Shown here: positions 4,001 to 4,046 of the stretch, in pieces | How positions within the stretch are numbered: the stretch's first letter is position 1 | How the letters are laid out: every line of letters starts with the position of its first letter | Sequence record: OQ693633.1 | Strand: one strand, 5' to 3' | Source of the DNA: Acinetobacter phage M02 | DNA length: 6,243 bases | Notes under the pieces: model-generated | What the model was told of the DNA's origin: nothing | The model's input: only the letters and a program-made list of their open reading frames with translations | Database searches by the model: none | Program-made: the position numbers and the translations under genes

Positions 4001-4046
4001 GAGTCCACGTCTTCTAATGGTGGACTCTAGTCCGATATTTCGGAAA
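4001..4046 (+). other. Ff-type (+) strand origin of rolling-circle replication. The hairpin GAGTCCAC-gtcttctaatg-GTGGACTC (equivalent to f1 hairpin D, the gpII nick site) is followed by a second small hairpin, TCCGA-tatt-TCGGA (equivalent to hairpin E).
   Basis: Compared with the f1 origin GGAGTCCACGTTCTTTAATAGTGGACTCTTGTTCC, both 8-bp stems are identical and the 11-nt loop is the same length with 7 of 11 positions identical. The same element encodes a clear gpII homologue. Confidence 0.75.

Follow-up and report, generated by a model that had tools for sequence, protein, structure and literature searches.

A probable Ff-type core origin of (+)-strand replication in a small dif-integrated filamentous prophage of Acinetobacter baumannii

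The stretch of DNA analyzed here, a window of 6243 nt, contains a small filamentous prophage of Acinetobacter baumannii without a secretin gene, as judged by inspection of its ORFs and their Pfam matches. With high probability, positions 4000–4050 of this window are the core (+)-strand origin of the prophage and a homologue of Domain A in the f1/M13/fd origin, with which the core very likely shares its lineage. An Ff-type (+) origin next to a gpII gene had been the main point of the original prediction, and it is supported by homology, fold, covariation, conservation, linkage to gII and the architecture of prophage arrays. The origin appears to be real, but it is also an expected companion of the gpII gene and is widespread among relatives.

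Within the prophage, two small ORFs (161–274 and 287–463) are followed by the genes for the major coat protein (476–712, Pfam Phage_Coat_B), a TspB-like adsorption protein (740–2122), a DUF2523 pVI-like protein (2122–2406) and a Zot/pI protein of 354 residues (2472–3536). A non-coding stretch of 510 nt separates the Zot/pI gene from the ORF of a 64-residue regulator on the minus strand (4047–4241). Downstream of it, on the plus strand, lie the genes for gpII (406 residues, 4364–5584) and for an SSB-like protein (102 residues, 5596–5904). The latter occupies the position of gene V or RstB and is a putative ssDNA-binding protein; it belongs to PHROG 4994, has a weak match to the RstB PHROG (E = 0.0034), and some of its UniRef entries are named 'Single-stranded DNA-binding protein'. 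Bases 1–136 are a direct repeat of 5817–5952 (99% identical, + strand, spacing 5816 nt), so that the window opens with the 3' end of another, upstream replication module. At the other end, positions 5916–6243 match other Acinetobacter contigs; the host flank was the only part found when the whole window was compared to phage records with megablast. Scans for Rfam families and tRNAs gave no matches.

The nick-site hairpin, a homologue of f1 hairpin D, is located on the plus strand at 4001–4027 and has an 8-bp stem and an 11-nt loop: GAGTCCAC (4001–4008), gtcttctaatg (4009–4019) and GTGGACTC (4020–4027). Its counterpart in f1 (V00606) is GGAGTCCACGTTCTTTAATAGTGGACTC at 5765–5792. An ungapped comparison of window 4000–4027 to f1 yields 24 identities in 28 positions; both 8-nt stems are identical, the loops have the same length, and all four mismatches fall within the loop, where 7 of 11 positions agree. 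The near-identity to hairpin D that had been proposed thus holds, save for a shared GGAG in front of it: there, the common part is trivial, being just the one G before the stem. When the window was shuffled 1000 times with its dinucleotides preserved, no match to f1 exceeded 20/28, the best value reached, and a Smith-Waterman alignment of the f1 core to the window scored 42, compared to 21.9 ± 2.0 with a maximum of 28 for the shuffles, so the alignment to the Ff origin clearly exceeds that to shuffled controls. When 3880–4060 was searched blindly by blastn in 2.3 Gb of phage records, essentially the Ff origin alone was retrieved, with an E-value of 7 that is insignificant by itself but with the location exact; the matched fd records annotate the site as 'origin of viral strand synthesis'. 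A pattern search with the f1 28-mer at up to 3 mismatches found no match, because the true match has four.

Folded as single-stranded DNA, window 3996–4050 adopts the same two-hairpin topology as f1 5761–5815 (−11.4 kcal/mol, z = −4.2, reached by 0 of 200 shuffles). In f1, the gIIp footprint covers 5774–5813 and the cut is made between 5780T and 5781A; Domain A (5769–5819) is required in both initiation and termination (PMC5405960). With the offset of 1765 between the two sequences, the footprint corresponds to window 4009–4048 and Domain A to about 4004–4054, and we predict that gpII cuts between T4015 and A4016, the position to which the f1 cut maps. The loop of the window would then be cleaved as GTCTTCT/AATG, compared to GTTCTTT/AATA in f1. 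Across 25 origins T4013, T4015, T4018, G4020 and T4021 are invariant, which includes the T residues at −1 and +3 relative to the predicted cut. The dinucleotide directly 3' of the cut is AA, GG or AG among the relatives, and this variability makes the exact cut position less certain than the identity of the origin. The variant GG, instead of AA, occurs in a clade whose gpII is 70–73% identical to that of the window, and Dulem virus 63 and A. qingfengensis have it too (loci L071–L084, L018 and L012).

The original prediction also held that a second small palindrome follows the hairpin, as hairpin E does in f1. It is present as the inverted repeat TCCGA-tatt-TCGGA at 4031–4044 on the plus strand, which folds as predicted, covaries and is the positional equivalent of hairpin E, with a different sequence. 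Of 24 origins, about 21 have such a repeat 2–5 nt beyond the nick hairpin, again with differing sequences, and among 23 variants of the Acinetobacter clade 99.1% of cells are paired and four of the five pairs have changed on both sides. By its position and symmetry, we presume the repeat to be the binding site of gpII, even though its sequence is unlike that of hairpin E. The sequence of the second repeat tracks the gpII clade; together with the dinucleotide variants of the loop, it may define groups of replication specificity. On the 3' side, the stop codon of the regulator gene (4047–4049) already overlaps the Domain A equivalent. An enhancer of the Ff type (Domain B, A/T-rich, with IHF sites) is not visible by sequence in the window, where the regulator gene leaves no non-coding stretch for it.

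To see how the hairpin is distributed, we fetched all phage records with a full-length gpII homologue and scanned them. A hairpin of this type precedes gII in IKe, in Pseudomonas phages 42-1, 97-1, NEU2023 and 5a, in blackswan219-1, in Dulem viruses 52, 57, 62, 63 and 65, and in inovirus D_HF5_61; the record of PEar6, which is IKe-like, contained no hairpin match. The loops in these phages end in CT(T/C)T-(A/G)(A/G)T-(A/G) and are followed by a second small inverted repeat. Some stems have been exchanged in a compensatory way, for example to GAGTGGAC/GTCCACTC and GGCACAC/GTGTGCC. In an alignment of 25 origins, 98% of the cells of the nick hairpin are paired and five of eight pairs show compensatory changes, a result that none of 500 shuffles reached, and every shift of the pairing register reduces the paired fraction to 30–46%.

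Closer relatives were found in 66 IMG/VR contigs and four genome contigs of Acinetobacter or Moraxellaceae, with gpII identities of 57–99%. In nearly all of them the hairpin lies about 350–500 nt upstream of gII, and the pair of hairpin and palindrome, which IKe and inoviruses of Pseudomonas and of saliva also have ahead of gII, is found in about 60 Acinetobacter/Moraxellaceae contigs. The 49 unique relatives that were compared agree with the window at 90–98% over 4001–4030 and at 69–77% over 4031–4050, and at only 30–55% in the flanks, including the coding sequence of the regulator beyond 4050. Searching in the reverse direction, from the DNA, the exact stem enclosing any 11-nt loop occurs in only 111 stretches among 2.9 million viral contigs. 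This stem scan added 89 loci, and in 81 of them the loop is nick-like; most of these 81 encode a gpII homologue on the same stretch (32–100% identity). The pattern GAGTCCAC-N11-GTGGACTC, followed by a palindrome, is a near-specific marker of phages with an Ff-type gpII, and the classic Ff nick site is placed in a large, mostly temperate clade of inoviruses from Acinetobacter, Moraxellaceae, Pseudomonas and oral and gut metagenomes.

The product of gene II (4364–5584, + strand), whose start lies about 340 nt 3' of the origin hairpin, is an Ff-type rolling-circle initiator. It matches the Pfam families Phage_CRI (2.8e-49) and G2P_X_C (2.5e-14) and is 36.4% identical to f1 gpII over its full length, so that the clear homology of the two proteins, as originally claimed, is borne out. 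We aligned it with homologues that included f1, IKe, two Pseudomonas phages and four inoviruses from lemur saliva. In this alignment Tyr192 of the window protein corresponds to Tyr-197 of f1, the residue that forms the 5'-phosphotyrosine link (PMC5405960), and is invariant in nine homologues; Tyr192 is thus the likely linking tyrosine, as judged from the alignment. Met290 aligns with Met300 of f1, where pX starts, is equally invariant in the nine gpII homologues and is preceded by GAGG 8 nt upstream. An in-frame gene X starting internally at this codon (5231–5584, + strand) is hence probable, and it is probably conserved throughout the clade. On 169 A. baumannii contigs the identical gpII sequence is present, listed by NCBI as 'phage/plasmid replication protein, II/X family'.

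Between the origin core and gII lies the divergent regulator gene (4047–4241, − strand). Its product, a putative repressor, belongs to PHROG 5219, which has no assigned function, and has no match in Pfam and no sequence match in the PDB; a single-sequence AF2 model (pLDDT 59) was too poor for a fold search. The protein is, however, 44% identical (E = 9e-17) to the product of the gene annotated as 'repressor' at the same position in Pseudomonas phage 97-1, and this similarity and its position suggest the same role for it. The divergent control region (4242–4363) carries operator-like inverted repeats on AGGTAACTT / AAGTTACCT: 4257–4277 pairs with 4308–4328 (90% complementary) and 4308–4331 with 4336–4359. 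These nested repeats (4257–4359) are likely operators, and a promoter-like site is located on the minus strand at 4309–4282. The position of a repressor gene between origin and gII had been singled out as unlike f1. This is true for the comparison with f1, but it is nothing special, since it is the usual layout in temperate relatives: Pseudomonas phages 42-1, 97-1 and NEU2023, Dulem viruses 52, 57, 62, 63 and 65 and D_HF5_61 all have a hairpin, a small minus-strand ORF and gII in this order. The slot is filled by unrelated cassettes in related phages (window 4047–4241 on the minus strand; L004 735–926; L003 1163–1525), and Pf 42-1 has in it a protein that is 35% identical to CTXphi RstR. As far as the sequences tell, this variety resembles an exchange of immunity cassettes.

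The prophage is integrated at the chromosomal dif site, with junctions at the boundary between XerC arm and central region. At the right end, attR (5927–5954, + strand) is a reconstituted chromosomal dif, ACTTCGTATAA-TGTATA-TTATGTTAAAT, after which host DNA follows; it matches the dif of Acinetobacter ADP1, GATTCGTATAATGTATATTATGTTAAAT (PMC2731167), and its junction, ACTTCGTATAA / TGTATATTATGTTAAAT, is seen both in the window and in complete chromosomes. At the left chromosomal junctions, host TGTTCGTATAA is joined to TGTGATGTCC; attL has host TGTTCGTATAA followed by TGTGATG... The phage sequence actatataac to the left of the XerC arm (5916–5926) is a near copy of the host sequence actatataat to the left of dif (L087 9514–9525), which hints at a past capture of host DNA beside dif. 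Together with the absence of a secretin (no pIV) and a divergent regulator, whose role as repressor is conjectural, integration at dif with XerC-arm junctions agrees with the CTXphi-like lysogenic lifestyle that had been anticipated.

Upstream of the origin, a candidate attP(+) of the CTXphi type extends over 3885–3988 on the plus strand. It has two inverted dif-like sites, AGTTCGCATAA-TGTGATGTCCAGA-TTATGTTACT (+) and AATTCGCATAA-TGCAGA-TTGATGTTAAA (−), and in its predicted fold forms a forked hairpin whose central region has a 7-nt bulge (−41.7 kcal/mol, z = −9.4). In the literature we searched, an attP of this folded type has not been described for Acinetobacter phages.

This structure ends 12 nt before the origin hairpin, a proximity that lends some weight to another reading, in which the hairpin is a functionally shifted relic, either a site of termination or resealing or a Xer accessory structure at attP, and initiation takes place elsewhere. 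The lack of a visible enhancer domain is also in its favor, as is the greater complexity of the CTXphi origin, which comprises 167 bp and requires HU (PMC4439123). Nonetheless, the nick loop and the downstream repeat, both of which lie within the Ff gIIp footprint, are kept and covary, the peak of conservation is centered on the hairpin and not on attP, and the same pair occurs in the non-integrating relatives f1 and IKe, which have no attP. We therefore consider a relic unlikely.

It is more unlikely still, and indeed improbable, that the palindromes serve as a terminator or stabilizer of the convergent transcripts of the gene I operon (+) and the regulator gene (−), with the likeness to f1 incidental. 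A consensus scan does mark 4031–4044 with its A/T-rich tail as terminator-like on the plus strand, and the regulator gene ends at 4047, yet this is one site found where 0.5 are expected, and a much stronger terminator-like hairpin with a T-run is located at 3921–3958. On the minus strand, neither hairpin is followed by a T-run. A terminator would also leave unexplained the 24/28 identity to f1, which includes the loop, and the strict linkage to gpII genes. Contamination by a phagemid or other f1-origin cloning vector is already refuted by the sequence: f1 origins are common in vectors, and some stem-only matches in viral contigs carry the exact f1 loop without a gpII gene (L099, L153), but the loop of the window differs at four positions, its flanks are unrelated to f1, and the same sequence is found inside prophages of complete A. 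baumannii chromosomes.

Returning to the origin as part of a replication unit, attP, origin, regulator, gII/pX and the SSB-like gene together form a module of 2.05 kb (3888–5940). In complete A. baumannii chromosomes, this module occurs alone at dif (L087 9526–11593) or in tandem (L022 395–4487), and it flanks the core of the window in L090 and a different core in L089. Arrays of module, core and module are present in L053, L084, L089 and L090, and arrays with two copies have identical origins at a spacing of 5820 or 6609 nt. In addition, seven contigs of 2.1–2.3 kb have terminal overlaps (L031, L039, L050, L052, L054, L067, L077) and look like module-only circles or collapsed tandems. The boundary between module and structural core is marked by a degenerate dif-like junction, J1, at 111–138 of the window (+ strand; ACTTCGTATAA-TGTATA-ATATGTAAATA), which is kept at the same place in the relatives L053 (2962), L084 (3195), L089 (11566), L090 (11566), L022 and L065. 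Recombination between J1 and dif could delete a core, leaving module-core-module arrays. The proposal that the module is mosaic is thus supported in one sense, as it reassorts with different structural cores at Xer sites, but not in the sense of a recent import, since GC content is flat throughout the window (0.34–0.42) without any discontinuity.

The module looks like an RS1-like satellite or a minimal replicon. A more far-reaching interpretation, for and against which we see the chances evenly balanced, is that 3888–5940 constitutes an autonomous RS1-like satellite replicon of Acinetobacter, which integrates at dif via a single-stranded attP of the CTXphi type, is combined with interchangeable cores, and gives rise to infectious genomes by rolling-circle replication from one chromosomal origin copy to the next. 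If true, this would be a second, independent instance of the CTXphi/RS1 lifestyle, built on an unrelated initiator family (Phage_CRI and not Rep_trans). The occurrence of the module alone, in tandem and beside different cores at dif makes the CTXphi model, in which hybrid genomes arise from tandem elements, testable in a second system with a different initiator. The CTX-type attP and the RS1-like satellites are in this respect a more novel lead than the origin itself.

From the homology to Ff, we infer the following for gpII binding, the exact cut, the chemistry of Tyr192 and origin-to-origin replication. gpII (4364–5584) would bind the duplex at the 4031–4044 repeat together with the neighboring 3' arm of the nick hairpin, cleave the plus strand at T4015/A4016 within the loop, and become linked to the 5' end through Tyr192, while the 3'-OH would be extended by the host polymerase. 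Once the fork is back at an origin copy, gpII would cut again and reseal the displaced strand as a single-stranded circle. As the prophage at dif is arranged as module, core and module, the fork may next meet the downstream origin copy in the chromosome, in which case replication from origin to origin would yield a 5.8-kb (5816-nt) circle carrying the folded attP, as has been described for CTXphi arrays.

Compared to the known systems, the origin resembles that of f1/M13/fd most closely in its identical 8-bp stems, its 11-nt loop, the T/A context of the cut and the second inverted repeat directly after the hairpin, and these are accompanied by an initiator of the same family (36% identity) in which the tyrosine and the pX start are conserved. 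It differs in that its second repeat has another sequence and is located 3 nt further on, and in that Domain B is not evident. In the surroundings, the window has a folded attP upstream of the origin where Ff has the (−) origin and packaging hairpins; a divergent regulator separates origin from gII, gene IV is absent, and the phage resides at dif. The origin is homologous to that of Ff and would work like it, but with gene IV missing, attP upstream and the regulator downstream, we regard the genome, by its sequence, as not of the Ff/Inovirus M13 type. In IKe (X02139 6554–6599, annotated as stem loops of the viral-strand origin), the stem is the same, GAGTCCAC/GTGGACTC, with a loop ending in TTTAATA, a GTTGCA/TGCAAC repeat follows, and gpII is 37% identical to that of the window. 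IKe is, however, a non-integrating, secretin-encoding, plasmid-specific phage.

The integrase-less P. aeruginosa phages Pf 42-1 and Pf 97-1 (PMC10675462), as well as NEU2023, have a gpII that is 40% identical to that of the window and share the nick loop CTCTAATGGTGGAC. They also share the succession of hairpin, small divergent repressor and gII, and they have no secretin; in contrast, their stem is GGGTCCACC and their host has a high GC content. No origin is described for Pf 42-1 and Pf 97-1 in PMC10675462.

CTXphi RS2/RS1 of Vibrio cholerae has attP, origin, divergent repressor, Rep and a small ssDNA-binding protein in the same order as the window. Like CTXphi, the prophage lies at dif, has a two-site attP with a predicted fold and encodes no secretin, and its modules occur in module-core-module arrays as well as in what look like module-only satellites. 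The initiators differ: RstA belongs to Pfam Rep_trans, and in BLASTP its comparison to the gpII of the window gave E = 1.8, so that the contrast of the replication module with CTXphi drawn earlier is valid and the two proteins are unrelated in sequence. We had considered that RstA might be a member of the Phage_CRI family together with gpII, which its assignment to Rep_trans rules out. RstA nicks between G and T in the 167-bp, HU-dependent CTXphi origin (PMC4439123).

The window probably represents the same phages as the Af/AfM filamentous (pro)phages of A. baumannii (PMC11209303, PMC12285184). For these, circular forms from 5,816 nt, one of exactly this length, and a Zot of 354 aa have been reported (PMC12285184), figures that are matched by the 5816-nt unit and the 354-aa Zot of the window, and the papers mention flanking replication/regulation modules (PMC11209303) and tandem repeats. 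Origin, nick hairpin and attP are not described in either paper; the term 'hairpin' never appears in PMC11209303, nor do 'origin of replication' and 'attP' in PMC12285184.

In practical terms, the core of about 50 bp together with gII could serve as an origin for phagemids and the production of ssDNA in A. baumannii, and the predicted nick provides a defined site at which the induction of the prophage can be mapped.

As for other elements of the prophage, the fold of 3537–3890 contained no convincing structure for a packaging signal or a (−) origin (z = −2). A long, nearly perfect hairpin is located at 2399–2457, with exact arms of 19 bp, about 27 pairs, −28.4 kcal/mol and z = −9. It covers the last part of the pVI-like gene and immediately precedes gene I, an unusual place in comparison to Ff, and is a candidate for a packaging signal or a terminator. 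Further, the non-coding stretch 3' of gene I contains direct repeats (3599–3671), with two copies of TACCAGGTATGAAC(C/T)AGGACTTT at 3599–3621 and 3638–3660 and a third, partial copy, ACCAGGTATA, at 3661–3670.
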